DNA of 64,000 nt from an uncultured Anaerolinea sp. (GCA_964503625.1 CAZDAU010000002.1:32768-96767), one strand, 5' to 3'; numbered from the stretch's first letter, positions 30,762 to 54,577 are shown. Notes: generated by a model not told the origin, from the sequence alone. Program-made: numbers and translations.

Positions 30762-31013
30762 ATGAGTTCAAATCCATCGTTGACTGCCCAGGTGCAGGCT
30801 TTGCTGGCAGAAGCCATCCAGGCACCACCGGAACTGGTGACCGCTGACCTGGCCTTTGGTGATCTGCCGCAGTGGGATTCGCTGGGCCATATGGAAGTGA
30901 TGTTGCGTTTGGAAGAGCAGTATGGGATTGCCATCGACGCAGAGATCATCGCCCACCTGGTCAGCATCCCCGAAATCTGCAAGTACCTGGAGGCAAACGG
31001 CCATGTCCACTGA
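30762..31013 (+). CDS. Acyl/aminoacyl carrier protein (phosphopantetheine attachment site)
   Basis: 83 aa. LAFGDLPQWDSLGHMEVMLRLEEQYGIAI carries the DSLG serine motif of ACP/PCP-type carriers. Confidence 0.85.
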   Translation: MSSNPSLTAQVQALLAEAIQAPPELVTADLAFGDLPQWDSLGHMEVMLRLEEQYGIAIDAEIIAHLVSIPEICKYLEANGHVH

Positions 31014-32214: not shown

Positions 32215-32253
32215 CATCACAGTAATGCAATTCAGATTTCGGAGCGTCAAACC

Positions 32254-32748: not shown

Positions 32749-32815
32749 GAAATCAGGATTTATCCTCTCATGGGTAATGGTTAAGCATCCCTGATTCCCA
32801 GAATCCTGAATTTGC

Positions 32816-33580
32816 ATGCAAGAAGTCACCAAAGATCAAGTGGTTGCCTGCCTGACCAGCCTGGGTGTCTGCCCTGGCGATGGCCTGCTGGTGCATTCGG
32901 CGGTGCAATATCTGGGCCTGCCACGGGGAGGCGTGGGAATGTACCTGGAAGCCATCCAGGATGTGATTGGCCCCGAGGGCACGTTGGTGGTGCCGGCTTT
33001 CAATTTTGGCTTTGCCAGGGGCGAGCGTTACGACCCCGGTGAAACGCCCTCCCAGGGCATGGGTGCCTTCTCGGAGTATGTCCGCCGGCTGCCTGGGGCG
33101 CGGCGCACGCTGCATCCGATGCAGTCGGTGGTGATTCTAGGGCGCTATGTTGACGATTTGTCAGGCCGCGACACCTTTTCGGCCTTCGACCCGGGCTCGG
33201 CATTTGAGCGCATGTTGGAATTGGACTTCAAGCTGCTGCTATTGGGCGCCGACTCACGGGCAATCGCTATGTTCCACTACTGTGAACAGCGGGCCAAAGT
33301 GCCTTACCGCTACTGGAAGGATTTCACCGGCGAAGTGCGCACCCCCGATGGTTGGCAGACTCGCACATACCGCATGTTCGTCCGCGATCTGGAACTGGAT
33401 CCTCAGCTCACATTGGAACCGGTGGTCGCTTACCTGGAAGCGCGTGGTCAGTGGCTATCCACCTGGCTGAACTACGGACAGATCACAGTTTGCCGCCTGG
33501 CCGATTTTGTTGCCGCCGCCGACCGTTTCCTGGCGGATGATCCCTGGTCGTTGGTCAAGAATCGTCCCCCCATGAAATAG
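32816..33580 (+). CDS. AAC(3)-family N-acyltransferase (aminoglycoside N3-acetyltransferase fold)
   Basis: LTSLGVCPGDGLLVHSAVQYLGLPRGGVGMYLEAIQDVIGPEGTLVVPAFNF...TLHPMQSVVILG is the typical AAC(3)/Antibiotic_NAT N-terminal pattern. Confidence 0.75.
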   Translation: MQEVTKDQVVACLTSLGVCPGDGLLVHSAVQYLGLPRGGVGMYLEAIQDVIGPEGTLVVPAFNFGFARGERYDPGETPSQGMGAFSEYVRRLPGARRTLHPMQSVVILGRYVDDLSGRDTFSAFDPGSAFERMLELDFKLLLLGADSRAIAMFHYCEQRAKVPYRYWKDFTGEVRTPDGWQTRTYRMFVRDLELDPQLTLEPVVAYLEARGQWLSTWLNYGQITVCRLADFVAAADRFLADDPWSLVKNRPPMK

Positions 33581-33824
33581 GCGTTCTTTGGAATGAGATT
33601 TTGAAGACCGCAACCCAAAGTTCAGGTCTTTTACTATTGGCAACCATATTGGCGGTTTTGCTTTCATTCTGGCGGCAACTATCCAATTTTTCCCTTTTGC
33701 GGTTCTACCTGGCAGCTACCTGCCCCGGCCTTTTTGGGCTGCTTTCGCCAGCGAAGGTCTTGGAATAAACCAGCGTTGGCGAACAGTCCGTAGGCCATAG
33801 CACCATGCTACTGATGAATGTCCG

Positions 33825-35132
33825 ATGAGTGATCCGATTGAATTGATCCATGCGCTCTGGTTCCTCCAGCGGAACCTCGTTTCTGATGAATATGACCAGG
33901 CGTTGTACCGCCTGCGCGATGAAATGGGGGGGCGTATGGTGATCCACGAATACGCCACTGGAGAAACCTGCTGGACCTGGCGCATTCCGGAAAAGTGGAC
34001 CTGTGACCAGGCCTATCTGGAGGCGTTGGATGGTCGCCGTCTGGTGGATGCTGCAAACCACCCTCTCCACGTGGTGTCTTATTCGCTGCCGTTTGAAGGT
34101 ATTGTGTCGCGTTCCGAGTTGCTTCAGCACCTGCACGTTCACCCACGCCTCCCTGAAGCCATTCCATTCGTGTTTAAGTATTACCAGCGCGATTGGGGGT
34201 TGTGCCTGACGCAGGTTCAGCGGGATGCACTGACCGATGAATCCTATCGGGTCGTCATCCGCTCACGTTTTGAGCCGGGCGCGCTGAAGGTGGGCGAAGT
34301 GGTCATCCCCGGCGAGAGTGATGAAACCTTTGTCCTGGTTGCCCATCTGTGCCATCCAGCGATGGTGAACGACGACCTGACCGGGGTGGTGGTGGGCCTG
34401 GAGGTGGCCCGGGAGCTGCTGGCAGGCCCTCGGCCCTATTACACCTACCGCTTGCTGATCTTGCCGGAGACAATTGGCTCTGTTGCTTACTTGAGCCATC
34501 ATGAAAATCTGATCTCCAGGATGATTGGTGGGCTGTTTCTGGAAATGCTGGGCAACGACTCGCCCCACGCCCTGCAAGGATCTTTCACGCCGCACAGCCA
34601 GCCCGACCGTTGCTTTGTCTCTGCTTTGCCTGGCCTCGACCCGCAGAGCTACCATGCCCCTTATCGGATGGTGATTAACAACGATGAGCGCCAGTTCAAT
34701 GCCCCAGGCGTGCGTGTGCCCATGCTTTCGCTCTCCAGGGTGCTGCGGCGCGATTCGCCCGAGTGGCCTTACCCGGAGTATCATTCCAGCCTGGATACCC
34801 CTGCAATCATCACTTCAGAGCGCCTGGAGGCTTCAAAACAGGTGGTTTTGGGCTTGATCCATGCCTTTGAGCGCAACCAGTATGTGGTTAATTTATTTAA
34901 GGGTGAGGTCTTCTGCTCTGGTTACGGCATCTGGATTGATTACCGGGTAAACCCGGAGGGCCATCGCCGCCTGTTTGATATCATGGAACGTTGTGATGGC
35001 GAGCGCACCATCGCCGATATTGCTGCTGACTTGGGCGTCACCTTCCAGGCGGTCTGGCAAGTGGTCGACCTGCTCCAGCAGAAAGGTTTGGTGAGGTTTA
35101 GCCGTACGCCTGCCCCCACCTCCCCGCGCTAA
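33825..35132 (+). CDS. Aminopeptidase-like domain protein (DUF2172/DUF4910 type) with C-terminal winged helix
   Basis: VIHEYATGETCWTWRIPEKW...FVLVAHLCHPAMVNDDLTGVVVGLEVAREL...YTYRLLILPETIGSVAYLSHHE. C-terminal CDGERTIADIAADLGVTFQAVWQVVDLLQQKGLV. Matches my recollection of the COG4310 family common in glycan loci. Confidence 0.65.
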   Translation: MSDPIELIHALWFLQRNLVSDEYDQALYRLRDEMGGRMVIHEYATGETCWTWRIPEKWTCDQAYLEALDGRRLVDAANHPLHVVSYSLPFEGIVSRSELLQHLHVHPRLPEAIPFVFKYYQRDWGLCLTQVQRDALTDESYRVVIRSRFEPGALKVGEVVIPGESDETFVLVAHLCHPAMVNDDLTGVVVGLEVARELLAGPRPYYTYRLLILPETIGSVAYLSHHENLISRMIGGLFLEMLGNDSPHALQGSFTPHSQPDRCFVSALPGLDPQSYHAPYRMVINNDERQFNAPGVRVPMLSLSRVLRRDSPEWPYPEYHSSLDTPAIITSERLEASKQVVLGLIHAFERNQYVVNLFKGEVFCSGYGIWIDYRVNPEGHRRLFDIMERCDGERTIADIAADLGVTFQAVWQVVDLLQQKGLVRFSRTPAPTSPR

Positions 35133-35153: not shown

Positions 35154-36017
35154 TTGGACCTTTATTTCACCACCAAACACTTGCTCAAATCGGTTCGCTG
35201 GCAAGGCCGGCGGGCTATCGTTGCTCTGCGCTGGGGCCCGGCGGCCCTGCACAGAGCTCCAGCGGTGCTGGGCAACGCCATGCCCAAGTCTGGATCGCAC
35301 CTGATTAACCAGGTGGTGCAGGGGCTGACCCGCCTGGGCCCATTCGTCAACTCGGGCTTTCCCCCGGTCAATCGCGACGAAGTCAACGACAAGCTGCCCG
35401 AAGCTCAGGTGTTGGCCAACTTGAACCGCATGCGCCCCGGCGATATTGGCTATGGCTATATCAAGGCCCAGCAGCCCTTTGTTTCGTTGCTCACCCGGCC
35501 GGGATGGGCAACCATTTTTGTTTATCGTGACCCGCGGGACATGCTGATCTCGCATGTCTTTTACGCCACGCAGATGCACAAAGGCCACGGCATGCACCGC
35601 TATTACACCGAGACATTGCAGACGATGGAGGAGCGCATCAATGCCGCCATCCAGGGGGTGGAAGAGCCCGGCTCTCAGCTTTCGCCCGTGCGAGTCAAGT
35701 ACGAGGGTTATCTGGGCTGGCTGGAACAACCGGCTGTGCTCAGTTTGCGCTTTGAGGACCTGATCCTGGACCGCCCTGCAGCCCTGGGGCGCATTCTGGA
35801 TTATCTGGTCCAGCGTGGTTTTGTTCCCCACCTGCCCCGCGATCAGGAGATTGCCATATTGGAGCAGGCCATCGCCCCCAAAAAGTCCGGCACATTTCGC
35901 AAAGGACAGCCGGGCAACTGGAAAGATTATTTCACCCCTGCGAATAAGATTCTCTTCAAAGAGATGGCCGGCGATTTGTTGATCCAGTTGGGGTACGAAA
36001 GCGACCAGGATTGGTGA
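35154..36017 (+). CDS. Sulfotransferase (ST3)
   Basis: LGNAMPKSGSHLINQV, VYRDPRDMLISHVFY and GTFRKGQPGNWKDYF. Paralog of 36625..37524. Confidence 0.85.
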   Translation: MDLYFTTKHLLKSVRWQGRRAIVALRWGPAALHRAPAVLGNAMPKSGSHLINQVVQGLTRLGPFVNSGFPPVNRDEVNDKLPEAQVLANLNRMRPGDIGYGYIKAQQPFVSLLTRPGWATIFVYRDPRDMLISHVFYATQMHKGHGMHRYYTETLQTMEERINAAIQGVEEPGSQLSPVRVKYEGYLGWLEQPAVLSLRFEDLILDRPAALGRILDYLVQRGFVPHLPRDQEIAILEQAIAPKKSGTFRKGQPGNWKDYFTPANKILFKEMAGDLLIQLGYESDQDW

Positions 36018-36021
36018 AACA

Positions 36022-36609
36022 GTGAGCGCAAACCCCAAAAGGTCTCCTCTCAAAGGTTTGTTGAGCGGGTTTTTAACCCGCCAACGTTTTCAGGCGGTGT
36101 CGGCTTATATCCGCGGCGATGTTCTGGATATTGGTTGTGGCTATGGCAAGGTTTTGTCTCTTTTACCGCCCGGAATTTCCTATACAGGCGTGGATAGTGG
36201 CCCCGAGATAATTCAATACCTGCGAAAAACCTACCCCGGTCATGAGTTTTTTCTCCTGGATTTGGACAAGGGCGAGTTGCAGTTGGATCAACGGTTTGAT
36301 ACGATTTTGATGCTGGCTGTGGTTGAGCATCTCTCCCAGCCGCAGAAAGCCCTTTGTCAGGCTCTGGAACACCTCAAGGCGGATGGTTGCCTGCTTATCA
36401 CCACACCGTCTCCCTTTGGAGATCGGATCCATCGCCTGGGAGCGCGTTTGGGCCTGTTCTCGCAATTTGCCGCGGATGACCATGAAACCATTTTTACCCA
36501 GGCTTCGCTGCGTAGGCTGCTCGAAAACTGCGGCATTCAGATCGATCGCTATCGCCGCTTTCTTCTGGGAGGAAACCAGTTGTTTGTCTGCTCTCAAAGA
36601 AGGCGCTGA
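36022..36609 (+). CDS. Class I SAM-dependent methyltransferase
   Basis: VLDIGCGYGKVL (motif I), FFLLDLD and DTILMLAVVEHLSQPQKAL...DGCLLITTP. Confidence 0.85.
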   Translation: MSANPKRSPLKGLLSGFLTRQRFQAVSAYIRGDVLDIGCGYGKVLSLLPPGISYTGVDSGPEIIQYLRKTYPGHEFFLLDLDKGELQLDQRFDTILMLAVVEHLSQPQKALCQALEHLKADGCLLITTPSPFGDRIHRLGARLGLFSQFAADDHETIFTQASLRRLLENCGIQIDRYRRFLLGGNQLFVCSQRRR

Positions 36610-36624
36610 CCGAAACTCAAAGAA

Positions 36625-37524
36625 ATGCAGCCCACAGACAAAGCCAGGCTGAAAACTCGAGGCCTGCTCTCGGTTCGTTTGTTCCGTCGAGCCGCCCGCC
36701 GCGCCTGGAAAACTGTGCGCAATGGCTCTCTCTCTGCCTCGCCAGTTTTCTTCGCCAACTCTTTTCCCAAGAGCGGCACGCATCTGCTCACCCAGGTGAT
36801 GCAGGGCTTCACCCGCCTGGGTCCAGCGGTGGATAGCGGGCTGCCTGCGGTGGTCACCTTCGATGGTTTCACGGGTCGCCAGCGCAGGGTCGAAGAGATC
36901 ATGGCTGATCTTTGGCGTTTCTTGCCCGGCGATATCGGCTATGGACATGTGCACGCTTTTCCCCCGGCGGTTGAATGGTTTTGCCGGACGGGAGTGGCAG
37001 CTTATTTCATTCTTCGCGATCCCCGGGATGTGGTGGTCTCGCATGTGCATTACGTGGCAGAGATGGCGCCTTCTCATATCCATCACCGCTATTATCACGA
37101 TGTGCTCCAGACCTTCGACGAAAGGCTACGCGCCAGCATCACCGGGGTTTCGGTTGAGGAGCTGGCTGGGGCCAGCGATGGAAAGCTGGTTTACGAGCCT
37201 TTGCCGGATATCCGAGCGCGCTTCTCGCCTTACCTTGGCTGGCTGGAACATCCTCAGGTGCTTGTCTTGCGGTATGAGGACTTCATCCGCGAGCGGAGCA
37301 TGACGCTGGGCCGTGTCCTTGATCACGCAGTGAACCGTGGCTTTCAGTTGGCGGTTGGCCGTCAGGAGGCCCTGCGAATATTAGAAGAAAGCATCAATCC
37401 GGCTCGCTCGCCGACCTTCCGCAGCGGCACGATTGGGGGTTGGCGGAAGAGCTTCACGGCTGAGCACAACGCGCTGTTTGCAGATGTAGCCGGAGATCTG
37501 TTATCTGGCCTGGGCTATGAGTAA
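36625..37524 (+). CDS. Sulfotransferase (ST4)
   Basis: FANSFPKSGTHLLTQV, ILRDPRDVVVSHVHY and PTFRSGTIGGWRKSF. Confidence 0.85.
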   Translation: MQPTDKARLKTRGLLSVRLFRRAARRAWKTVRNGSLSASPVFFANSFPKSGTHLLTQVMQGFTRLGPAVDSGLPAVVTFDGFTGRQRRVEEIMADLWRFLPGDIGYGHVHAFPPAVEWFCRTGVAAYFILRDPRDVVVSHVHYVAEMAPSHIHHRYYHDVLQTFDERLRASITGVSVEELAGASDGKLVYEPLPDIRARFSPYLGWLEHPQVLVLRYEDFIRERSMTLGRVLDHAVNRGFQLAVGRQEALRILEESINPARSPTFRSGTIGGWRKSFTAEHNALFADVAGDLLSGLGYE

Positions 37525-38485
37525 GGAACCCAATCAGCCGGTTTCGATAATCGTTCGGGCCTACAATGAGGCTCGCTATATTGGCCGCCTGTTGGATGGC
37601 ATACTGCAGCAGCGTATCAGGGACATCGAGATTATCCTGGTCGATTCTGGCTCAACGGACGGCACGCTCGAAACCGCCGCGCGCTACCCAGTGCGCGTGG
37701 TGCGCATCTCCCCTGCTGAATTCACCTTTGGCCGCTCGCTTAACCGCGGCCTGGCTGTGGCAACTGGTGACTACGCGGTGATTGCCAGCGCCCATGTTTA
37801 TCCCGTTTACCCGGACTGGCTGGAGCGCCTGTTGGCGCCGTTTGCTGATCCGCAGGTCGGCCTGACCTATGGCAAGCAGCGCGGCGCCCCAAACAGTCGT
37901 TTCTCTGAGCAGCAAATCTTTGCTCATTGGTTCTCGGATATCTCTCAGCCTCGCCAGCCGCACCCGTTTTGCAACAATGCCAATGCAGCCATACGCCGCG
38001 CCCTGTGGAAAAGCCGGCCTTATGACGAAACCCTGACCGGACTGGAAGACCTGGCCTGGGCAAAGGATATCCAGGAAGCCGGCTATGCTGTCGCTTATGT
38101 CGCAGAAGCGGAAGTGATCCACGTCCACGATGAGACGCCGCGGGGGGTGTACAACCGTTACCGTCGAGAGGCAATGGCGCTGAAGCAGATTTTTCCCAAG
38201 CAGCGCTTTACTCTCCTGGACTTCCTGCGCCTGTACCCGGGCAACGTGGTCAGCGATATCTGGCATGCTGCTCACCAGGGCGTTTTGTTTCCCAACTTGA
38301 AGAGCATTTTCTGGTTTCGCCTGGCACAGTTTTGGGGTGCGTACCAGGGCTTTCGTCACCCTGGCCCGGTAACTGAACAGCTTCGCCAGACATTTTATTA
38401 TCCGCCCAACTTGCACAAACCTGTGATTAAGTTGGACCGAGATGTCAGTCCCATTAACTATGATCAAGCCAACCCGGATCATTAG
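37517..38485 (+). CDS. Glycosyltransferase family 2
   Basis: VSIIVRAYNEARYIGRLLDGILQQRIRDIEIILVDSGSTDGT. Overlaps the ST4 stop by 8 nt. Confidence 0.85.
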   Translation: MSKEPNQPVSIIVRAYNEARYIGRLLDGILQQRIRDIEIILVDSGSTDGTLETAARYPVRVVRISPAEFTFGRSLNRGLAVATGDYAVIASAHVYPVYPDWLERLLAPFADPQVGLTYGKQRGAPNSRFSEQQIFAHWFSDISQPRQPHPFCNNANAAIRRALWKSRPYDETLTGLEDLAWAKDIQEAGYAVAYVAEAEVIHVHDETPRGVYNRYRREAMALKQIFPKQRFTLLDFLRLYPGNVVSDIWHAAHQGVLFPNLKSIFWFRLAQFWGAYQGFRHPGPVTEQLRQTFYYPPNLHKPVIKLDRDVSPINYDQANPDH

Positions 38486-38578
38486 GAAGACTTGCATGCC
38501 TGGTGGCTCTTGATCAGAACGCATGGAGATCGAACTTGAGATGGTTCACAAAATTTTGAAGAAAGTGGTTCAAACTGG

Positions 38579-39244
38579 ATGACCCGCCTCGTCGCCCTCG
38601 TCCCGATGCGGCATCACTCGCAGCGTGTGCCGGGCAAAAATTACCGCCTGCTGGCAGGTAAGCCGCTCTATCAGCACATCATCGTTACCCTGCTCGCCTG
38701 CCCGGAGATTGCCCAGGTGGTTGTGGACACGGATAGCCCGCCAATCATCCAGGGGCTGCAGCGTGATTTTCCTCAGGTGCTCGTCCTGGAACGGCCGGAG
38801 CGCCTGCGCGCGGATCATATCCCAATGAATGAGATCCTGATCTATGACACAAGCCAGGTGCAGGCCGATCTTTACCTGCAAACTCACACCACCAACCCTT
38901 TGCTGCGCCCGCAAACGATCTCATCTGCGATCCAGTCCCTCCTGGCGAGCTACCCGGCTCACGACTCGCTCTTCTCTGTTACCCGGTTGCAGACCCGCCT
39001 GTGGGATCAACTTGGCCGAGCAATCAACCACAACCCGGCGATCTTGCTCCAGACACAGGACCTGCCGCCGGTCTTTGAAGAGAACTCCTGCCTGTATATC
39101 TTCACCCGTCAGGTGCTCTTGGAACGGCGCAATCGTCTGGGTGAGCGCCCGATGATGTTTGAGATTGATGCTGCCGAAGCCTGGGACATCGATGAAGAAC
39201 TGGATTTTGAGATCACTAATTTCCTGATGAGCCGAGCAAAATAA
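38579..39244 (+). CDS. Cytidylyltransferase, CMP-NeuAc-synthetase-like family (third copy in the locus)
   Basis: LVALVPMRHHSQRVPGKNYRLLAGKPLYQHIIVTLLACPEIAQVVVDTDS...THTTNPLLRP. Confidence 0.75.
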   Translation: MTRLVALVPMRHHSQRVPGKNYRLLAGKPLYQHIIVTLLACPEIAQVVVDTDSPPIIQGLQRDFPQVLVLERPERLRADHIPMNEILIYDTSQVQADLYLQTHTTNPLLRPQTISSAIQSLLASYPAHDSLFSVTRLQTRLWDQLGRAINHNPAILLQTQDLPPVFEENSCLYIFTRQVLLERRNRLGERPMMFEIDAAEAWDIDEELDFEITNFLMSRAK

Positions 39245-39247
39245 ACT

Positions 39248-40204
39248 ATGCCCACTGTCCTTGTATCTGCCCCTTACATGATCCCTGTGATCGACCGCTA
39301 CCGACCGTTATTGGAAAGCTATGGAATTGAGCTGGTCATTGCGCCGGTGAAAGAGCGCTTGAACGAAGAGGCGCTGCTTGCCCTGGCGGGCACCTTTGAT
39401 GGCACGCTTTGCGGCGACGACCGCTACACCGAGCGTGTCCTGGAAGCCTGCGCCCCGCGACTGAAGGTGATCTCCAAGTGGGGTACAGGCATCGATTCGA
39501 TTGACCAGCAAGCCTGCAACCGCCTGGGGATTATGATTGGGCGCACGCCCAATGCGTTCACGTTGCCCGTCGCCGATACAATCTTTGGCTATATGCTGGC
39601 TTTTGCTCGCCGCCAGCCGTGGATGGATCGCGCTATGAAGAGCGGCGTCTGGGATAAACTGCCCGGGCGCTCCCTGAGCGAGTGCACGTTAGGTGTGGTT
39701 GGCGTGGGAAACATTGGCAAGGCGGTCATCCGCCGGGGGCGCGCCTTCGGTATGCACATCCTGGGCAACGATATCGTCGAGATTGCACCGGATTTCATCC
39801 GCGAAAACGAATTTGAGATGACCACCCTGGATGACCTGCTGAGCCGCTCGGACTTTGTCAGCCTGAGTTGTGACCTGAACCCAACCAGCTTCCATTTGAT
39901 GAACTCCCGCACCTTTGCCTTGATGCAACCCACAGCGATCCTGATCAATGCAGCGCGCGGGCCGGTTGTGGATGAGAAGGCGCTGGTCGCGGCTTTACAG
40001 GGTGGCGTCATTGCCGGGGCCGCTCTGGATGTGTATGAGACAGAGCCGTTGCCGGTGGACAGCCCGCTCATGAAGATGGACAACGTATTGCTGGCGCCGC
40101 ACAACGCCAATTCCAGCCCAGCAGCCTGGGAGCGCGTGCATCGCAACACGGTGCGCAACCTGCTGATTGGGCTGGGCTTCAAACCTCCTGAAAAGATAGC
40201 TTAG
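39248..40204 (+). CDS. D-isomer-specific 2-hydroxyacid dehydrogenase (phosphoglycerate-dehydrogenase-like)
   Basis: LGVVGVGNIGKAVIRRGRAFGMHILGND (NAD motif), LINAARGPVVDEKAL and LDVYETEP...LLAPHNA. Confidence 0.85.
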   Translation: MPTVLVSAPYMIPVIDRYRPLLESYGIELVIAPVKERLNEEALLALAGTFDGTLCGDDRYTERVLEACAPRLKVISKWGTGIDSIDQQACNRLGIMIGRTPNAFTLPVADTIFGYMLAFARRQPWMDRAMKSGVWDKLPGRSLSECTLGVVGVGNIGKAVIRRGRAFGMHILGNDIVEIAPDFIRENEFEMTTLDDLLSRSDFVSLSCDLNPTSFHLMNSRTFALMQPTAILINAARGPVVDEKALVAALQGGVIAGAALDVYETEPLPVDSPLMKMDNVLLAPHNANSSPAAWERVHRNTVRNLLIGLGFKPPEKIA

Positions 40205-40371
40205 CGTTCTGTCCAGTTTGCTGCCAGAATTTGGCAACCTCACCGACGGAAATCTTCGAGCTTTGTTCAGGCTGCTGGGCAATTGATATCGAACCTTGCT
40301 CAATGGATGGACAAAGCAACAGCCCGGCTGCTTTTGAAGGCCTGGCAACCGGATCACAGAAAGAGGAATAC

Positions 40372-41145
40372 ATGCCAGAACATGACATCAACCCACGGAC
40401 GATGTTGATCACCGGCGCGGCGGGGGGCATTGGCCGGGCAACCGTCCATCTTTTTGCCCAAAAGGGCTGGCGGGTGATTGGCGTGGATCGTTCTCCTTTT
40501 GGCGATGACTTTCCAGCCAATGGCCTGTTTATCCAATCGGATATTTCAGTTGGCGAGAACCTGGAATCCATTTTCCGCCAGGCCCGGGGATTCACCGACC
40601 GGCTTCACACCCTGGTGAACAATGCCGCCGTGCAGATCGCCAAGCCCTTGGTGGAGACCAGCGTGGCCGAATGGGACGCTGTAATGGCCTCCAATCTGCG
40701 CTCGGTCTTTCTGGGTATCAAGCTGGCGCATCCACTGCTGCTGGCTGCTGGCGGAGGCGCGATTGTCAATGTCTCATCAGTCCACGCCATTGCCACCTCA
40801 GCCAATATCGCTGCCTATGCCGCCAGTAAGGGCGGCCTGTTGGCGCTGACCCGGGCAGTTGCAATTGAGTTTGCTGCTGACAACATCCGCTGCAACGCCA
40901 TTCTGCCCGGTGCAGTGGATACCCCCATGTTGCGCGCGGGTCTGAATCGCGGCCATGTCAGCGGGGATGATATCCTGCAGCGGCTGGACAACCTGGCCCG
41001 CAAGACGGTCAATGGGAGGGTGGGGCAGCCGGTGGAGATCGCTCATGCGATCTACTTTCTGGCAGATCACGACCAATCTTCCTTCATGACCGGCCAGGCT
41101 CTGGTGGTGGATGGCGGCGCTACCGCACGGCTGAGCACGGAATAG
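40372..41145 (+). CDS. Short-chain dehydrogenase/reductase (SDR)
   Basis: The ATG at 40372 follows an AAGAGGA Shine-Dalgarno. MLITGAAGGIGRA, NNAA, SSVHA and YAASKGG. The ORF-track start 40231 would run through a 168-nt spacer. Confidence 0.85.
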   Translation: MPEHDINPRTMLITGAAGGIGRATVHLFAQKGWRVIGVDRSPFGDDFPANGLFIQSDISVGENLESIFRQARGFTDRLHTLVNNAAVQIAKPLVETSVAEWDAVMASNLRSVFLGIKLAHPLLLAAGGGAIVNVSSVHAIATSANIAAYAASKGGLLALTRAVAIEFAADNIRCNAILPGAVDTPMLRAGLNRGHVSGDDILQRLDNLARKTVNGRVGQPVEIAHAIYFLADHDQSSFMTGQALVVDGGATARLSTE

Positions 41146-41170
41146 TCTTGCAGCAATTGCCAGGAAGGAT

Positions 41171-41983
41171 ATGGCTGAAATCAAAGAGACTCTGAAGCGT
41201 GTCACCCCGCGCCCGATCTGGCAGGCTGCCCGCAGCGCCTGGAATGGCCTGCAGAACGCTGCGCTCTGGCCCGAAGCGACCTTTCATCCCTGGCGGCGCG
41301 CCAGCATCCGTCGCCTGGGCGAATTGAAAGACATCCATCGCGGCCAGCGTTGTTTTATCATCGGCAACGGGCCAAGCCTGAAACAGACCGATCTGACATT
41401 GCTCAAAGACGAATTCACCTTTGGGATGAATCGCATCTACCTTGGCTTCCCAGAGATGGGTTTTCAGACCACTTATTTCCTCACGGTCAACAGCCTGGTG
41501 ATCGAACAGTGTGCAGAGGACATTCGTTCCCTGACCATGCCGCGCTTTGTCTGCTGGCGCTCACACCGGTTGATTGGCACGGCTCCGGACCTGAATTTCC
41601 TGCACACCACTTACACCGGGCCAAAATTTGCCACCGATGCCCGCGGCCGCCTGTGGGAGAGCGCAACCGTCACTTATGTGGCGTTGCAACTGGCTTACCA
41701 CATGGGCTTTGAAAAAGTCATCCTGATTGGCGTTGACCATAGTTACTCTGCCCAGGGCAAGCCTAACACCACGGTTGTTTCGCAAGGCGACGACCGTGAT
41801 CACTTTAATCCCAGTTATTTTGGTAAGGGCTTTCGCTGGCAGCTGCCCGACCTGGAAACCTCTGAGCGCGGTTATCATATGGCGCGCCAGGCCTATGAAA
41901 AAGCTGGCCGCCAGGTGCTGGATGCCACCATTGGAGGAAAACTAACAATCTTCCCCAAGGTGGATTACAAAACCCTGTTCTGA
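41171..41983 (+). CDS. DUF115/Maf-like or GT42-like putative nonulosonic-acid transferase
   Basis: CFIIGNGPSLKQTDLTLLKDEFTFGMNRIY. The GNGPSL motif is shared by Campylobacter Cst sialyltransferases (GT42) and motility-associated-factor/DUF115 proteins. Confidence 0.55.
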   Translation: MAEIKETLKRVTPRPIWQAARSAWNGLQNAALWPEATFHPWRRASIRRLGELKDIHRGQRCFIIGNGPSLKQTDLTLLKDEFTFGMNRIYLGFPEMGFQTTYFLTVNSLVIEQCAEDIRSLTMPRFVCWRSHRLIGTAPDLNFLHTTYTGPKFATDARGRLWESATVTYVALQLAYHMGFEKVILIGVDHSYSAQGKPNTTVVSQGDDRDHFNPSYFGKGFRWQLPDLETSERGYHMARQAYEKAGRQVLDATIGGKLTIFPKVDYKTLF

Positions 41984-41989
41984 AAGCCA

Positions 41990-43594
41990 ATGCCCGGGAT
42001 GACACCGCCTTTGTTGAAGAATCTCTTTGCGTGGGGTGTGATTGCTCTGCTGGTCTTGGGTGCAGCCCTGCGTTTGTACGACCTGACCGATCAACCGATC
42101 GATTTCCATGCCACGCGCCAGTTGCGTGGCGCCATCGTCGCCCGCGGCATGTACTATCAGATGCTCCCCGATGCTGACCCGGCCATGCGCCAGCGGGCGC
42201 AGGCTTACTCAGATTCCACCGGCCAGTATGAGCCCCCGATCTTAGAGGGGATTGTCGCTGCAACCTACTTTCTCCTTGGTTATGAAGCCTTTTGGATTGC
42301 CCGCATCTACAACACGCTGTTCTGGCTGGTTGGTGCTCTGGCGGTTTTTCTTCTGGCGAAGCGCATGGCTCTCTCGGCGGGCGCGTCTGATGGCGATCCC
42401 TCCAGCCTTGCCCTGGTCTGGGTTCCTGCGTTGGTTTCCCTGGCCTATGTCCTGGTCCTTCCTTTCGGCGTCCAGGCCAGCCGCTCTTTCCAGCCCGACC
42501 CGGCGATGACCATGTGGCTCAGTCTCTCGGCGCTGGCGCTTTACCGCTGGTCGGAGGAGCAGGGGCAGCCGAAGCCTGGATGGAAATGGACTCTGCTGGC
42601 TGGATTGTTCTCTGGCCTGGCTGTGTTGACCAAGGCAGTGGCAATTTTTATTATTGGCGGCGCATTTCTGGCGCTGGCCCTGCATGCCCATTTGACCTCT
42701 GGTAAACCGTCCATGGCTGCCTCCCTGATGAAACTGTTGCGCTCTCCCCGGGTTTGGGTCATCGGGCTTTTGATGGTGGCCCCGACCGCGATCTATTATT
42801 TCTCTCGCCAGGGGAGGGCGGCGGAATATTTTTCAACCTGGACGCTCTCACTTTCTCACTTGCTGATTCAGCCGCGCTTTTACCTGGGCTGGCTGAATCT
42901 GGTGCAGGAGTTGCTCACCCCGGTTGCTCTCCTGGCGGCTCTGGCGGGCGTCTGGATGGCGCGCGGGCGGAATCGCTGGCTTCTGGCTGGCCTGTGGGCC
43001 GGCTATCTGGTTTACGGTCTGTTCTTGCCTTATCAGATGGATACCCACAGCTACTATCACTTGATGCTGGTGCCGATTGTTGCCCTTTCGCTTGTCCCGT
43101 TGGCGCAGCGCGTGGTCCGTTTTTTGCTCACAAAGTCGCGCCTGTGGCAGGCCTCAGCAGCGGGGTTGGCTGTGCTGGCACTGGCTTTTCTGTCCTGGCA
43201 GGCGCTCATCCCCCTCTATTCCCAGGATTACCGTGATGAGCCGGCTTACTGGCAGGAAATTGCTTCCCACCTGCCAGCGGACGGCAAAATCATCGCCCTG
43301 ACTCAGGACTACGGTTATCGACTGATGTATTATGGCTGGCGCAAAGTGACCCTTTGGCCTAACCGTGGCGAGATCCGCCTGAACAATTTGCGCGGCAGCA
43401 GCAAAGAGTTTGATCAATTCTTTGCCAAGCGCACCCAAGATAAAAGCTATTTCCTGATCACGGCCTTCCGGCAGTATGAAGATCAGCCGGCGCTTCAGCA
43501 AACCCTTAGCCAGCGATATCCGATTCTGGTTCAAACGCCGGGTTATATCATCTTTGACCTGACCCGCCCTCTTCAGGCTGGAGCTGCGCCATGA
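41990..43594 (+). CDS. GT-C-fold membrane glycosyltransferase (ArnT/PMT, GT39/GT83-like)
   Basis: 534 aa. N-terminal ALRLYDLTDQPIDFHATRQLRGAIVARGMYY, then more than 10 TM segments and a soluble C-terminal domain. Confidence 0.6.
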   Translation: MPGMTPPLLKNLFAWGVIALLVLGAALRLYDLTDQPIDFHATRQLRGAIVARGMYYQMLPDADPAMRQRAQAYSDSTGQYEPPILEGIVAATYFLLGYEAFWIARIYNTLFWLVGALAVFLLAKRMALSAGASDGDPSSLALVWVPALVSLAYVLVLPFGVQASRSFQPDPAMTMWLSLSALALYRWSEEQGQPKPGWKWTLLAGLFSGLAVLTKAVAIFIIGGAFLALALHAHLTSGKPSMAASLMKLLRSPRVWVIGLLMVAPTAIYYFSRQGRAAEYFSTWTLSLSHLLIQPRFYLGWLNLVQELLTPVALLAALAGVWMARGRNRWLLAGLWAGYLVYGLFLPYQMDTHSYYHLMLVPIVALSLVPLAQRVVRFLLTKSRLWQASAAGLAVLALAFLSWQALIPLYSQDYRDEPAYWQEIASHLPADGKIIALTQDYGYRLMYYGWRKVTLWPNRGEIRLNNLRGSSKEFDQFFAKRTQDKSYFLITAFRQYEDQPALQQTLSQRYPILVQTPGYIIFDLTRPLQAGAAP

Positions 43595-44670
43595 ACTCAC
43601 TCTTTGACAGCCGGAAGAGTCTGGAATCGCGCGGCGCACTGGTTTCCATTGTCACCCCTTCCTTCAATCAGGCGGATTACCTGGAACAGACCATACAGTC
43701 CGTCCTGGCTCAGGACTATCCCCGGATTGAATACATCATTGTGGATGGCGCTTCCACAGATGGCAGCGTGGAGATTATTAAGCGCTATGATGACCGGTTA
43801 GCCTGGTGGGTCTCGGAGCCGGATCGCGGCCAGGCTGATGCAATTAACAAAGGGTTGCAACGAGCCAACGGTGAGATTGTCGCCTGGCTTAATTCCGATG
43901 ATCTGTACCTGCCTGGCGCGGTGGAGCGCGCTGTGGCTGCCCTGCAAGCCAATCCTGCCATGGGTTTGGTCTATGGCGATGCGCTGACCATTGATTCGCA
44001 AGGCCGGCCAATTCACCCGCTGGTGTTTGGGAAATGGGGCCTGGCTGAGCTGATCCGCTTTCGGATTATCTGTCAGCCGGCGGTGTTCATGCGCCGCTCG
44101 ATTCTGGAGCAGGCCGGTTATCTGGATCCGTCTTACCACATGATGCTGGATCATCACCTGTGGATTCGCATGGCGCTAAAATCGCCAGTCCAATACATTG
44201 GCCAATCTGGGATATTTGTCCCTATGGCCGCGGCGCGCCATCATCCCCAGGCGAAGAACGCCTCCCAGCCGGAGAAATTCGCCCAGGAGACTCTGCGAGT
44301 GTTGACCTGGATGCAGGAACAGCCCGAATTGCAGACGCTCATCCTGCAAGGGCGCAGGCAGGTCAGGGGGGGCGCCTATCGCCTGGTGGGGCGGTATTTG
44401 TTGGATAGCGGCTCTTATGCCGGCTCGCTGCGCGCCTATCGCCAGGCGCTTCTGGCCTGGCCGTCTTACACCCTCAAACACTGGCGCCGTATCCTCTACG
44501 CTGCACTCAGTTTGGCGGGATTGTCAGATCCCCTGGATCGCATGCGCGAGCGAGATTTGATTCGCCAGCGCGCTCGCCTGGTTGAACAGCTCAAAAATCT
44601 GTCGCCAGGATTATCCGGCGCAGCTTTTGGGCCAGACCTGGCGCACTGGCCTGGGTTATGTCTCCAGTGA
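43591..44670 (+). CDS. Glycosyltransferase family 2
   Basis: VSIVTPSFNQADYLEQTIQSVLAQDYPRIEYIIVDGASTDGS...AWLNSDDLYLPGA. ATGA overlap upstream. Paralog of 45619..46416. Confidence 0.88.
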   Translation: MNSLFDSRKSLESRGALVSIVTPSFNQADYLEQTIQSVLAQDYPRIEYIIVDGASTDGSVEIIKRYDDRLAWWVSEPDRGQADAINKGLQRANGEIVAWLNSDDLYLPGAVERAVAALQANPAMGLVYGDALTIDSQGRPIHPLVFGKWGLAELIRFRIICQPAVFMRRSILEQAGYLDPSYHMMLDHHLWIRMALKSPVQYIGQSGIFVPMAAARHHPQAKNASQPEKFAQETLRVLTWMQEQPELQTLILQGRRQVRGGAYRLVGRYLLDSGSYAGSLRAYRQALLAWPSYTLKHWRRILYAALSLAGLSDPLDRMRERDLIRQRARLVEQLKNLSPGLSGAAFGPDLAHWPGLCLQ

Positions 44671-45614
44671 CCGGTCTCCCATCTGACTCAACGCCGATCC
44701 TGGTGACGGGGGCTCACCGCACTGGAACCACCTGGGTGGGTAAGATGCTGGCAGCAAACTCACAGGCGGCGTACATCAGCGAGCCGCTGAACATCTGGCA
44801 TCGCCAAGGCGTACTGCGCGCCCCGGTGCAACATTGGTATACCTACATCTGCCCGCAGAATGAGACTCAATACCTGTCCGCTTTCCAGCAGACATTGGGC
44901 TTTCGCTATCATTTGCTGGCGGAAATTTTATCCTTGCGGTCACTCAAAGACGCTGGCCGCATGGGGCGTGATGTTGGCATCTTCTTGGGCGGTCGAGTGC
45001 GCCGCAAGCGCCCGCTGCTCAAAGATCCCTTTGCGGTTTTCTCGGCCCCCTGGTTCGCCGGGCGCTTGAACTGCCAGGTGGTGATCACTGTGCGCCACCC
45101 GGCGGCATTTGCCAGCAGCCTCAAGAGGCTGGATTGGCCTTTTGATTTCAATCACTTGCTATCGCAGCCCTTGCTGATGCAAGATTGGCTCGAGCCTTAT
45201 CGAGACCTGATGCTGCAGATGTCACAGGCATCAACTGGAGGGGATGTCATTGATCAGGCCAGCTTGCTGTGGCGCATGGTCTACCAGGTTGTGGAAAGTT
45301 ACTGCAAGAAGTACCCACAGTTTAAAGTTGTGCGACACGAGGACCTTTCGTTGGACCCGCTGGGCGGCTTTCAGCAGCTCTATGCCAGCCTGGGATTAAA
45401 GTTCACCCCCCAAGTCCAAGAAAATATCCTGGCTGCCAGCAGTTCAGACAACCCCCATGAACTGTCCAGCCGATCGGTGCATTCGGTGCGCCTGGACAGC
45501 CGGGCCAACCTGCACAATTGGAGACGACGCCTGACCGGTGATGAAATTAACCGGGTGCGCCGCCTGACCGAAGAAACGGCTGGCCTCTTTTACCCAGAGA
45601 TGGATTGGGAGTAG
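44658..45614 (+). CDS. Sulfotransferase (ST5)
   Basis: [19 protein letters not shown] (PAPS loop), [18 protein letters not shown] and [11 protein letters not shown]. Confidence 0.75.
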
Positions 45615-45618: not shown

Positions 45619-46416
45619 ATGGCTGTTGCCTCCTCAACTCCGATGCCGTTAGTCTCGATTGTCACCCCCTCATACAACCAGGCGCGGTTTCTGGAGATAA
45701 CGATCCGCTCGGTGTTAGAGCAAGATTACCCCAACCTGGAATATATCGTTGTCGATGGCGGTTCGACTGACGGCAGCCGGGAGATCATCGAACGCTACGC
45801 TGACCGGCTGTCTTGGTGGGTCTCGGAGCGCGATCAAGGCCAGACGGATGCGATAAACAAGGGTTTTGCTCGCGCCCAGGGTGAAATCCTGGCCTGGCTG
45901 AACTCCGATGACACCTACCAACCCCAGGCGATCTCCCAGGCAGTGGCTTTCCTGCAGGCGAATCCTGAGGTGGGGTTGGTCTATGGGGACGCAAACTTGA
46001 TCGATGAGTCTGGGCGGGTGATTGGCAAATTCCCGGCCCGGCAGACAAGCTACCAAAGATTGAGACGTGGTTATGTGCATATCCCGCAGCAAGCCGCATT
46101 TTTTCGGGCCAGCCTTTGGCGGCAGGTCGGCCCGCTTGACCCGACCTTCTATTTTGCCATGGATTACGACCTGTGGGTCAGACTGGCCCGCCTTGCGCCG
46201 ATTCAATACGAGCCCCGTCTATGGGCAAATTTTCGCCTGCACGATACTGGCAAGTCGGTGGTTGCCGACGACCGTTGCTGGCCGGAGATGCTGCGCGTCC
46301 ACTGGCGTGATGGGGGTAGCTGGTTTTCCTGGTTGGTATTTAAAGCGAAGATCAGGCCGCTGGTGTATGCCTGGCTGCCGCTGCGCTTGCGGCTCAGGTT
46401 GAGGCGTATGCTATAA
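45619..46416 (+). CDS. Glycosyltransferase family 2
   Basis: [42 protein letters not shown]...[13 protein letters not shown]. Confidence 0.88.
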
Positions 46417-46426: not shown

Positions 46427-47269
46427 GTGGACATAAAGCCTATGAGTAAAATCGACTCACTTAAAATATATGATTCCTCCCAGCGCGGCTTGCCGGCCAT
46501 GGAGGAGCTGCTTGAGTTGTTTCGCTATCGCAATCTCGTCTTCCAGACGGTGCGGCGCAACATTGTTGTGCGCTACAAACGCTCGGTCTTGGGGATTGCC
46601 TGGACGATGCTCAACCCGCTGGGCACCACCCTGATCTTGACTTTTGTCTTCTCTGGGGTGTTTGGGGGTCCCGCCAGCTATTCAGTTTATGTGTTGAGCG
46701 GCCTGATCTGCTGGACGTTTTTTTCCCAGGCCACCAATGACGCCATGCATAATCTGATCTGGGGAGGGGGCTTGCTCAAGCGCATTTATATCCCCCGCAC
46801 GGTGTTTGCGGTTTCTTCCGTCGCCACCGGGTTGGTGAATATGACCCTGGCCCTGGTGCCTTTGCTGGTCATCATGATGCTCACCAGCGTCACACCGCAA
46901 TGGAGCATGTTAATCCTGCCGGTCCCAGCTCTTTTCCTGGCTATGTTCGCCCTTGGAGTTGGCCTGCTGCTTTCAGCCATTGCCATTTACTTCACCGATG
47001 TGACCGAGATGTACACCATCCTCCTGATGGCCTGGTTTTACCTGAGTCCGGTAATTTACATGAAGGAATTCTTGCCCGAAGACTATGCCTGGATTGTCCA
47101 GCTAAATCCAATGTATTACTTGATTAACCTGTTTCGAGCGCCTATCTATGATGGCAGGGTGCCCAGTCTTCAGGAATTCCTGGTGTCTGGTGCGATCGCG
47201 GTTATAACGCTTTTGATTGGCTGGTTTGTCTTTTCCCAAAAGGCAGATGAGTTCGCTTACCGTGTCTGA
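46427..47269 (+). CDS. wzm: Polysaccharide ABC-2 exporter permease (Wzm type), copy 2
   Basis: LVFQTVRRNIVVRYKRSVLGIAWTMLNPLGTTLILTFVF. Six TM segments. GTG start at 46427 or ATG at 46442. Confidence 0.88.
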   Translation: MDIKPMSKIDSLKIYDSSQRGLPAMEELLELFRYRNLVFQTVRRNIVVRYKRSVLGIAWTMLNPLGTTLILTFVFSGVFGGPASYSVYVLSGLICWTFFSQATNDAMHNLIWGGGLLKRIYIPRTVFAVSSVATGLVNMTLALVPLLVIMMLTSVTPQWSMLILPVPALFLAMFALGVGLLLSAIAIYFTDVTEMYTILLMAWFYLSPVIYMKEFLPEDYAWIVQLNPMYYLINLFRAPIYDGRVPSLQEFLVSGAIAVITLLIGWFVFSQKADEFAYRV

Positions 47270-48053
47270 AAACTTGAAGGCTGCTTCGCTCAGCGCGCCG
47301 GATCTCCCAAACAGGCCCGGGACCGAAGCTGTGCTCCTGGAGCAGGTAGGTGTGTGCTATCGCGCCCCAAGCGAGCGCATTCACTCCATCAAGGAGTACG
47401 CCATCCGTTGGGTGCAGGGCAAGATTAAGCACCGCGAATTCTGGGCTTTGAAGGATGTGAACTTATCTGTGGCGCAGGGAGAATCACTTGGCTTAATTGG
47501 CCACAATGGCGCCGGGAAGAGTACGCTGTTGAAGCTCATTGCGCGCGTGTTGCGCCCAACGCAAGGCCGTGTCCGAGTGCGTGGCAATGTTGCCCCCCTG
47601 CTCGAATTTGGTGCTGGCTTTCATCCTGAGCTCACCGGTCGTGAGAACGTCTATCTGAACGGCGCGCTGTTGGGTTTTAGCCGTAAAGAAATGGATGAAA
47701 AATTTCATCGCATTGTTGATTTTTCTGAGCTGTGGGATTTTATAGATGCTCCCATGCGCACCTATTCGTCCGGCATGTGGGCGCGCCTGGGCTTTGCGGT
47801 TGCCACCGACATCAAGCCAGATATCCTGATCATTGACGAAGTGCTTTCGGTGGGGGATGAAGCCTTTCAGCGCAAGAGCGCCGCTCGTATGCAGGAATTT
47901 CGCGATCAGGGTGCCACAATCTTGCTGGTCTCGCATAGTATGGAAGTGATCCTAAGTATGTGCCACCGTGCCGCCTGGCTGGATCATGGGCAGCTGAAGG
48001 CAGTTGGCGAACCTGAAGTTGTCATTCAGGCATACCGCCAGAGCCAGGCTTAA
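47247..48053 (+). CDS. wzt: Polysaccharide ABC exporter ATPase (Wzt/TagH type, no C-terminal binding domain), copy 2
   Basis: Walker A GHNGAGKST, signature YSSGMWARLGFA, Walker B ILIIDE. Only 268 aa, so it is a nucleotide-binding domain alone. Confidence 0.9.
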   Translation: MSSLTVSENLKAASLSAPDLPNRPGTEAVLLEQVGVCYRAPSERIHSIKEYAIRWVQGKIKHREFWALKDVNLSVAQGESLGLIGHNGAGKSTLLKLIARVLRPTQGRVRVRGNVAPLLEFGAGFHPELTGRENVYLNGALLGFSRKEMDEKFHRIVDFSELWDFIDAPMRTYSSGMWARLGFAVATDIKPDILIIDEVLSVGDEAFQRKSAARMQEFRDQGATILLVSHSMEVILSMCHRAAWLDHGQLKAVGEPEVVIQAYRQSQA

Positions 48054-48056
48054 TCT

Positions 48057-50966: not shown

Positions 50967-51001
50967 GGAAAGAAAATTGGATCAATGTTGTATGATAGAA
51001 T

Positions 51002-53952: not shown

Positions 53953-53963
53953 CAGCCAGGATT

Positions 53964-54558: not shown

Positions 54559-54577
54559 GGGAAGAAAATTGAGAAAC

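Follow-up and report, generated by a model that had tools for sequence, protein, structure and literature searches.

The stretch of DNA analysed here, called the window, comprises 64,000 nucleotides from an uncultured Anaerolinea sp. (GCA_964503625.1 CAZDAU010000002.1:32768-96767). At positions 38579-41983, it carries a cassette of four genes, which encode a NeuA-like cytidylyltransferase, a D-isomer-specific 2-hydroxyacid dehydrogenase, a classical short-chain dehydrogenase/reductase (SDR), and an MptE-like/DUF115 (Maf-fold) single-domain protein, which is a predicted glycosyltransferase using ulosonates activated with cytidine monophosphate (CMP). We propose, giving it about an even chance of being right, that the cassette is self-contained and serves to make, activate and transfer one acidic keto-sugar, i.e., a 2-ulosonic acid that is probably hydroxylated and not N-acylated. 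This sugar is more likely non-aminated, and a sulfated glycan of the cell surface is most likely where it is installed. Each part is of a known kind; as far as the literature searched shows, their four-gene combination in polysaccharide clusters has not been described. Literature searches on DUF115/MptE-like proteins in connection with cytidylyltransferases or CMP, on the pairing of 2-hydroxyacid dehydrogenase and acylneuraminate cytidylyltransferase, on polysaccharides containing hex-2-ulosonic acid, and on nonulosonic acid in Chloroflexi returned nothing relevant.

Organization of the cassette

The cytidylyltransferase gene (38579-39244) encodes 221 residues that match PF02348, CTP_transf_3 (E 1.9e-27; 96.9 bits vs. 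22.6). It is followed by the 2-hydroxyacid dehydrogenase gene (39248-40204; 318 residues), the product of which matches PF02826, 2-Hacid_dh_C (195 bits, E 7e-58), and PF00389, 2-Hacid_dh (55 bits, E 7e-15). The SDR gene (40372-41145) gives a match to adh_short_C2 (178 bits, E 3e-52), and the MptE-like gene (41171-41983; 270 residues) one to PF01973 (43.7 bits). The initial annotation had assigned the four products to these families from the sequence alone, and the Pfam matches to all four open reading frames uphold the assignments. The open reading frame of the SDR was listed from a TTG at 40231, which is probably wrong. The start is probably the ATG at 40372, which has a ribosome-binding site, AAAGAGGAA, just 5' of it and yields a protein of 257 residues; homologues are called at 244-269 residues.

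All four genes are on the plus strand, co-directional and closely packed, with gaps of 3 to ~170 bases. A scan of the block found 6 promoter-like sites, vs. 5.6 ± 2.1 in shuffled controls, and 21 terminator-like sites, vs. 13.8 ± 3.7 in the controls, and no boundary inside the cassette was marked by a promoter or terminator. Because the scan turned up nothing convincing inside the block, the four genes are most simply read as one operon. Open reading frames on the opposite strand in 38570-42263 were dismissed as genes, since those on the plus strand have strong family matches and conserved homologues in related loci; the minus-strand frames were not themselves used as queries. The module and its flanks have the same GC content (0.57), and there is no signal of horizontal transfer into this genome.

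Conservation and distribution of the cassette

All window proteins were compared by tblastn with 85 related loci, and the four genes were counted over 94 fetched loci. They are found together and in the same order in 67 of these 94, and this order is not a chance arrangement. In nearly all loci with enough flanking sequence, tblastn revealed a larger block, in which a family-2 glycosyltransferase gene (GT2; at 37517 in the window) and the four cassette genes are followed by a second GT2 gene (43591), one to three genes for membrane glycosyltransferases of the GT-C type, and a third GT2 gene (45619). The cassette is an autonomous, widely conserved unit, which reaches out to GT2, GT-C, and ABC-transporter genes on its flanks.

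Close homologues of the 270-residue protein carry the annotation Chloroflexota or Anaerolineales. Anaerolineae account for all of the 80 best genome loci, and metagenome-assembled genomes among them are assigned to Anaerolinea, Leptolinea, Levilinea, Longilinea, Brevefilum, and Villigracilis. They also include Bellilinea caldifistulae GOMI-1 (L032), a cultured carrier of the cassette, which makes the proposal testable. Within the Anaerolineae, the four cassette proteins are 53-89% identical to those of the window, whereas identity is only 30-78% for the GT-C enzyme and only 41-72% for the GT2 encoded at 43591. Therefore, the donor-side genes are the most constrained. Across the class, the cassette is kept at 60-88% identity, far more strictly than the neighbouring glycosyltransferases, which points to a core component of the cell surface. 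Sediments, digesters, and granular sludge harbour large numbers of Anaerolineae, about the envelope chemistry of which hardly anything is known.

Three much more distant metagenomic contigs (L086, L088, and L092) share this order of the four genes, and the stop codon of one gene often overlaps the start codon of the next. The identity to the window proteins in these contigs is 54-59% for the cytidylyltransferase, 57-63% for the 2-hydroxyacid dehydrogenase, 48-59% for the SDR, and 44-56% for the MptE-like protein. One of them, L088, is a 19-kb glycan cluster in which no homologue of the ulosonate synthase NeuB is encoded. Likewise, a NeuB homologue is missing in 15 of the 30 well-flanked loci, i.e., those with at least 6.5 kb on either side. 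At a contig edge in a Wzx/Wzy-type cluster (L094), the SDR and MptE-like genes are present.

In another contig, L089, the cytidylyltransferase and MptE-like genes adjoin without the dehydrogenase genes. Therefore, the cytidylyltransferase and the transferase are the core pair, to which the two dehydrogenases have often been added and with which they co-evolve. The pair in L089 could reflect another supply route for the same sugar or a role in chain capping. The contig (positions 1-6218) is from a low-GC metagenomic bacterium (GC 0.32), and its cassette-type cytidylyltransferase is 42% identical to that of the window. Upstream of the pair lie genes for a Wzt protein with a Wzt_C domain, a GT2, a small NT5C/HAD-like protein, a 272-residue protein without Pfam match, and an FkbM methyltransferase.

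The cytidylyltransferase and its paralogues

The cytidylyltransferase encoded at 38579 contains an N-terminal P-x-R-x-x-S-x-R-x-x-x-K-N motif, of which P9, R11, S14, R16, K20, and N21 are kept in 58-61 of 61 orthologues. It does not reach the NCBIfam equivalog cut-offs for PseF (65.2 vs. 205.7) or kdsB (17.5 vs. 155.2). Its best match in the PDB is PpNeuA of Prymnesium parvum (9t4z; E 2e-15), a CMP-Kdn synthetase, where Kdn stands for deaminoneuraminic acid. In PpNeuA, Arg196 sets the preference for Kdn over N-acetylneuraminic acid (Neu5Ac), and the R196L substitution switches this preference (PMC12934254). The residues were mapped by a pairwise HMMER alignment only, with an offset under which four of the five residues named in the paper come out as published (the chain has Ile and not Leu at position 109). 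In this alignment, Arg196 corresponds to R186 of the window enzyme, Tyr183 to Y173, and Gln110 to H103. R186, Y173, H103, and an LQTH(S/T)TNP motif are invariant in the 61 cassette-type orthologues, which are 42-85% identical and include the enzyme of L089.

The invariant arginine at the position that governs Kdn preference suggests that, at the corresponding position, the sugar carries a hydroxyl and not an N-acyl group, i.e., that the substrate is a hydroxylated acid. The likeness to PpNeuA comprises this arginine and the neighbouring tyrosine. In contrast, Gln110, which is part of a Q-x-T-S-P motif and strictly conserved in sialic-acid synthetases, is replaced by the invariant H103 within LQTH(S/T)TNP, which argues for a pocket that differs from those of canonical sialate synthetases. 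Furthermore, the E-value of the match is only 2e-15, and neither a Kdn-9-phosphate synthase nor a phosphatase is encoded in the cassette. As judged from its sequence, the enzyme is a member of a distinct subfamily of NeuA-like, presumed CMP-ulosonate synthetases.

The initial annotation had counted three cytidylyltransferases in the window, and all three (at 16703, 25365, and 38579) are genuine as judged by their matches to PF02348. One could imagine that they are redundant for a single sugar and that the module is a duplicated spare. Shared membership of a Pfam family, and nothing else, speaks for this idea, which we consider extremely unlikely. The three proteins are only 26-31% identical pairwise, with two of the pairs aligning over only ~55 residues, and they differ at one position of the sugar pocket, that of R186, where the residues are Arg, Met, and Arg, with the Met in the enzyme encoded at 25365. 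Their best family matches differ as well: the enzyme at 25365 is PseF-like (170 bits), the one at 16703 is KdsB-like at its N-terminus, and the one at 38579 has no close match. The low identity and the differing best family matches therefore make redundancy, which had been named as a possible flaw of the initial annotation, unlikely. In addition, each of the three orthologue groups is separately kept at 62-85% identity across the Anaerolineae, and the cassette is mobile by itself. The data fit different substrates for the three enzymes rather than redundancy.

The three cytidylyltransferases had also been said to be matched in number by three candidate CMP-sugar transferases, and this match is real. 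The initial annotation had read it as a sign that up to three different CMP-activated acidic sugars may be made and installed. Besides the protein encoded at 41171, the candidates are encoded at 28032-29777 and 9776-11455. The former matches PF05159, Capsule_synth, and, weakly, KpsC structures (E 0.002). The latter, of 559 residues, has no Pfam or PDB sequence match, but over 255 residues it shares 25% identity with the protein encoded at 28032 (E 6e-20) and hence probably adopts the same transferase fold in a very divergent form. Minimal clusters, such as that of Bellilinea, contain two cytidylyltransferases, one NeuB, and two candidate CMP-sugar transferases.

The MptE-like transferase

The protein encoded at 41171-41983 is a member of the DUF115/Maf-fold family. 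Its match to PF01973 (43.7 bits vs. a gathering score of 34.6; E 3.3e-11) covers residues 50-193, i.e., ~145 residues, and profile positions 16-169 of 171. Hence, it extends well past the motif CFIIGNGPSL (residues 61-70) by which the protein had originally been recognized. Within this motif, G65-N66-G67-P68-S69-L70 is invariant or nearly so in 22 homologues and aligns with the GNGPSL of Cst-II. The invariant residues of the family are G67, P68, S69, N87, Q113, T166-V167-T168, G187, D189, H190, H211, F212, and Y216. Of these, D189, H190, and H211, along with the nearly invariant D208, D227, and E232, are candidate counterparts of the acidic catalytic residues E324 and D415 in Maf of M. magneticum.

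An AlphaFold2 model, built on the 22 homologues, has a pLDDT of 91.7 and a pTM of 0.86. The best solved match found with Foldseek is Maf of Magnetospirillum (5mu5; E 4.9e-5, probability 1.00, TM 0.49 on the query), followed by the archaeal pyrophosphokinase MptE (8sd5; E 3e-4). Thus, the relationship to DUF115/Maf proposed in the initial annotation goes beyond the short motif, both in the Pfam domain match and in the fold match. Membership of glycosyltransferase family GT42, which had been proposed in the same breath, is not supported. In profile searches against the PDB, Cst-II and Cst-I of this family are the best matches, with marginal E-values (0.006-0.03) over ~35 residues (GNGPSL...N) plus a weak G-V-D motif, and a single-sequence search against GT42 gave E-values of 0.5-0.9. 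No GT42 chains were among the Foldseek matches at E ≤ 0.001. In a low-confidence HMMER alignment, the invariant H190, H211, and Y216 were not reliably placed on the catalytic His188 and the phosphate-binding Tyr156/Tyr162 of Cst-I/Cst-II. The models for WaaZ and PseD matched only ~40 residues, far under the cut-off; for the WaaZ Kdo-III transferase (GT73; TIGR04437; Kdo, 3-deoxy-D-manno-oct-2-ulosonic acid), the score was 19.5 bits vs. a cut-off of 200, over residues 153-193 only.

Maf enzymes transfer Neu5Ac and Kdo from CMP donors, and the donor site in their DUF115 domain has been described as GT42-like (bioRxiv 10.1101/2020.06.03.131540). Considering family, fold, and gene context, the protein encoded at 41171 most plausibly works as a CMP-ulosonate transferase. 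Since the Pfam family takes its name from a pyrophosphokinase, it might instead be a kinase or pyrophosphokinase, the phosphorylated product of which would be converted by the cytidylyltransferase into a CDP-linked alcohol or acid for a decoration of the phosphodiester type. MptE is indeed the second-best structural match and gives a weak match in sequence (E 0.21). However, Maf, a glycosyltransferase, is the best fold match and the GT42 sialyltransferases are the best profile matches, and for these reasons a pyrophosphokinase was rejected as the primary reading. The domain is, furthermore, repeatedly fused to GT2 and GT4 domains, and the block contains no CDP-alcohol phosphotransferase. Enzymes of PF02348 activate the anomeric hydroxyl of ulosonic acids and do not need a phosphorylated substrate. 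Altogether, a kinase function is highly improbable.

The transferase has 6989 relatives in a search of 1.84 billion representatives (50% clustering), with 931 at E ≤ 1e-30. Many of them are proteins of 600-2400 residues with one to four copies of the domain. A Pfam scan of 19 multi-domain relatives revealed fusions to GT2, GT4, FkbM or class-I methyltransferase domains, and tetratricopeptide repeats; fusion to a cytidylyltransferase or to either dehydrogenase was not found in these 19. An extreme example is a 2193-residue protein in contig L090 (10001-16582), which contains two MptE-like domains, three GT2 domains, one GT4 domain, and tetratricopeptide repeats. It is encoded just 5' of flagellin, FliD, FlaG, and FliS genes and may be an unusually elaborate enzyme for flagellin glycosylation.

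The dehydrogenases and the origin of the sugar

The NAARGP, YETEP, and APH segments of the 2-hydroxyacid dehydrogenase, with a conserved Arg, Glu, and His, respectively, line up with those of 1wwk and 2dbq. These positions form the catalytic triad of the family. The best PDB match is 1wwk, deposited as phosphoglycerate dehydrogenase (E 9e-53), and the neighbours further comprise glyoxylate/hydroxypyruvate reductases, McyI, and 9m0t, deposited as a probable 2-ketogluconate reductase. The equivalog cut-offs for phosphoglycerate dehydrogenase (187 vs. 454), glyoxylate reductase (189.5 vs. 455), and GhrB (168 vs. 492) are not reached. The translated SDR contains the motifs ITGAAGGIG (TGxxxGxG) and YAASK (YxxxK). 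Among PDB chains, it matches 3vtz best (E 4.8e-40), which was deposited as glucose 1-dehydrogenase, and its nearest neighbours in the PDB and NCBIfam include glucose/aldose 1-dehydrogenases.

2-Hydroxyacid dehydrogenases act on the 2-hydroxy/2-keto acid function, which is the group that defines 2-ulosonic acids. The conserved cassette holds no synthase, aminotransferase, acyltransferase or dehydratase. In the proposed pathway, the SDR and the 2-hydroxyacid dehydrogenase would start from a common metabolite and produce or modify the free acid. In the most economical scheme, the SDR would act as an aldose 1-dehydrogenase that converts an aldose into an aldonate, and the 2-hydroxyacid dehydrogenase would work in the oxidative direction and convert the aldonate into a 2-keto-aldonate. 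Such a scheme would yield a 2-ulosonic acid without a phosphoenolpyruvate condensation of the NeuB or KdsA type. Given the chemistry of the 2-hydroxyacid dehydrogenase family, the gene content of the cassette, and the occurrence of the cassette without NeuB nearby, we prefer the inference that the dehydrogenase pair builds the keto-acid. The complete synthase-independent route, from aldose via aldonate to a CMP-activated 2-keto-aldonate that is transferred by the Maf-fold enzyme, with a non-3-deoxy 2-ulosonic acid as the product, is a tentative version of this proposal, which has an appreciable chance but is, on balance, rather unlikely. If the dehydrogenase pair indeed builds the keto-acid, this would represent a new biosynthetic logic for ulosonic acids and provide a new CMP-sugar for glycoengineering. 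If the synthase-independent route is correct, the product would be a new class of CMP-activated acidic sugar and part of a signature anionic envelope glycan across the Anaerolineae, functionally analogous to teichulosonic acid.

The 2-ulosonic acid, which would be needed in its cyclic hemiketal form, would then be coupled to CTP by the NeuA-like cytidylyltransferase, as its family, fold, and context indicate, and the resulting CMP-glycoside would be used by the Maf-fold/MptE-like enzyme to transfer the acid onto a lipid-linked glycan that the flanking GT2s have assembled; this transfer would take place in the cytoplasm. The glycan would be exported by an ABC transporter and be further decorated by GT-C enzymes and sulfotransferases. 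The presence of a single, stand-alone transferase suggests that one residue is added per repeat or chain, either as a side branch or as a cap at the non-reducing end.

Alternatively, the cassette may tailor a nonulosonic acid made by a NeuB encoded elsewhere. The dehydrogenases would then epimerise, oxidise or reduce the free or CMP-linked sugar, and the dedicated cytidylyltransferase and MptE-like transferase would handle the modified nonulosonate. This would resemble the proposed conversion of CMP-linked di-N-acetyllegionaminic acid (CMP-Leg5Ac7Ac) into acinetaminic acids by the products of the aci genes. The possibility, which we regard as real albeit doubtful, derives support from the two NeuB genes in the window and from many relatives in which a module with a PtmA-like SDR, a PseF-like cytidylyltransferase, NeuB, and a KpsC/S-like protein lies directly 5' of the cassette. 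The minimal clusters, with two cytidylyltransferases but one NeuB, are also in line with it, and SDRs encoded beside lga genes are predicted to yield C7/C8 epimers (PMC5595891). On the other hand, no NeuB is encoded within 10 kb of the cassette in L088, nor in the 15 well-flanked loci mentioned above, and the invariant R186 speaks against an N-acyl group at the position equivalent to C5. Besides, 2-hydroxyacid dehydrogenases act, as a family, on a 2-hydroxy/2-keto acid and not on ring or side-chain alcohols.

The initial annotation had suggested a glycerate- or lactate-type substituent as another possible product of the dehydrogenase pair. The dehydrogenases would then make a small hydroxy acid, such as D-glycerate or D-lactate, for attachment to a sugar, whilst the cytidylyltransferase and the transferase would act on an ordinary nonulosonate. 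N-glyceroyl and lactyl substituents do occur on bacterial sugars, and the 2-hydroxyacid dehydrogenase is closest to phosphoglycerate dehydrogenase and to glyoxylate/hydroxypyruvate reductases. However, the cassette lacks any enzyme that forms an acyl or ether bond, which makes such a substituent very unlikely: an acyltransferase, ligase, enolpyruvyl transferase, and carrier protein are all absent from the conserved four-gene unit. Acyl-type genes are present in the window at 30922-35132, but they lie outside the cassette, and L086 and L088 lack them.

Several observations weigh against the assembly and transfer of a new 2-ulosonic acid by the cassette. None of the cassette enzymes reaches an NCBIfam equivalog cut-off, so that their substrates are not assigned, and we know of no CMP-activated 3-hydroxy (non-3-deoxy) ulosonic acid. 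2-Hydroxyacid dehydrogenases usually run reductively, and the SDR resembles aldose dehydrogenases no better than it does many unrelated SDRs. The fold match to Maf is moderate, with a TM of 0.49 on the query and 13% identity. Both the window and about half of the well-flanked loci have NeuB genes close to the cassette, and in three loci (L012, L073, and L093) the transferase gene is present without the other three genes nearby.

Comparison with known systems

The 270-residue transferase shares PF01973 with the Maf flagellin transferases, of which 5mu5 is its best solved structural match, as well as, presumably, the use of a CMP-ulosonate donor, and relatives of its domain are found in giant proteins encoded beside flagellin genes. 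In contrast to Maf, it consists of the catalytic core without the flanking domains (the chain in 5mu5 has 632 residues). Also unlike Maf, its gene belongs to a polysaccharide cluster of the ABC-transporter type, no flagellar genes were found among the annotated open reading frames of the window, and its acceptor is presumably a lipid-linked glycan and not a protein. With the GT42 enzymes Cst-I and Cst-II of C. jejuni, it shares the N-terminal nucleotide-binding motif GNGPSL...N, a G-x-D motif after a hydrophobic strand, and a similar size of about 260-290 residues. No biochemical characterization of the MptE-like subfamily outside the flagellin Maf proteins was found in the literature searched, and assignment of a donor for this subfamily would annotate thousands of glycan clusters.

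With respect to gene content, the cassette resembles the aciABCD and aciE modules of Acinetobacter baumannii, in which dehydrogenase genes are located beside CMP-ulosonate genes and are predicted to diversify the sugar (PMC5595891). However, the aci modules are appended to a full lga pathway, whereas the cassette has a 2-hydroxyacid dehydrogenase instead and can stand without a nearby synthase.

Another likeness is to the terminal β-Kdo capping by WbbB (GT99) in O-antigen synthesis that depends on an ABC transporter and to the β-Kdo transferases KpsC/KpsS (GT107), in that such pathways also transfer a CMP-activated ulosonate onto a lipid-linked glycan. The window encodes a Wzt with a C-terminal carbohydrate-binding domain, and so does the DNA beside the cytidylyltransferase/MptE-like pair in L089. 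However, the fold of the β-Kdo transferases differs from that of the protein encoded at 41171, and the KpsC-like proteins of the window are those encoded at 28032 and 9776. Capping is a candidate role of the cassette transferase.

Flanking genes and glycan setting

Nearly the entire window is a single array of glycan genes on the plus strand. The conserved upstream partner of the cassette is the GT2 gene at 37517-38485 (plus strand; PF00535, E 6e-24). A homologue, with 48-74% identity, lies directly 5' of the cytidylyltransferase gene in most Anaerolineae loci and in L092, and one gene removed from it in L088. Downstream of the cassette, a GT-C membrane glycosyltransferase of the PMT_2/ArnT-like type (41990-43594, plus strand; PF13231, E 8e-9) is encoded. 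In relatives, one to three tandem, divergent copies of this gene are present, the products of which are 30-45% identical to the window copy, whilst the cassette stays highly conserved; loci with varying copy numbers include L013, L020, L024, L027, L030, L031, L034, and L035. Next come, all on the plus strand, the conserved downstream GT2 gene (43591-44670; PF00535, E 5e-30), a sulfotransferase gene that is variably present in relatives (44658-45614; PF13469, PF00685), and, at the end of the block, the gene for a small, highly conserved GT2 (45619-46416; PF00535, E 1e-30), which is 53-86% identical in relatives. The block is followed by a second ABC-2 transporter pair, consisting of a permease (46427-47269, plus strand; PF01061) and an ATPase without Wzt_C (47217-48053, plus strand; PF00005). 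Such a pair is also found after the block in the relatives L001, L006, L008, L009, and L074. In the other ABC-2 pair of the window (7552/8139), the ATPase carries a Wzt_C domain.

The window further encodes several methyltransferases, many GT2 and GT4 enzymes, and the enzymes for dTDP-rhamnose. Sulfation genes comprise one for a bifunctional ATP-sulfurylase/adenosine 5'-phosphosulfate kinase (22608-24389) and those for at least six sulfotransferases, which indicate a heavily sulfated glycan. The kinase gene and at least five of the sulfotransferase genes are located in the regions 19454-24389, 35154-37524, and 44658-45614, and the sulfotransferase genes that flank the cassette are variably present among relatives.

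Two NeuB homologues are encoded in the window, at 14434 and, fused to an AP_endonuc_2 barrel, at 26147. The first belongs to a module at 12359-17521, together with a PseB equivalog (an inverting UDP-GlcNAc 4,6-dehydratase; 493.7 bits vs. a cut-off of 407.75), an RmlD-like reductase, a GT4, and the KdsB-like cytidylyltransferase. No match to an aminotransferase family was found among the window open reading frames scanned. The combination suggests a 9-deoxy nonulosonate without the usual 7-amino group as the product of this module. The second protein (26147-28099), in which the NeuB homologue is joined to a xylose-isomerase-like TIM barrel, scores 354.7 bits to NeuB_NnaB and does not reach the cut-off of 399.65. 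The NeuB found at this place in many relatives resembles only the type encoded at 14434, with ~30% identity. Nearby are genes for an inositol-2-dehydrogenase-like GFO/IDH/MocA protein (21553) and an SDR (24396); the best NCBIfam match of the latter is PRK09186, which we take to be the flagellin-modification PtmA family.

The region 30922-35132 encodes a class-II tRNA-synthetase-like protein, an N-acetyltransferase of the Antibiotic_NAT type, and a metallopeptidase-like protein with DUF4910, DUF2172, and HTH_47. In relatives, an acyl carrier protein and a GNAT protein are added to this block. The same gene association was described for CA_C2195 of Clostridium acetobutylicum, where a DUF115 protein is a neighbour, too (PMC4000134). 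Finally, the region 46427-62728, which starts with the second ABC transporter, encodes a 969-residue protein with an α-L-rhamnosidase six-hairpin domain, two 490-residue proteins without Pfam match, homologues of RmlB, RmlA, and RmlD, and a 991-residue fusion of methyltransferase, GT2, and GT4 domains. This region looks like one for a separate, rhamnose-containing polymer.

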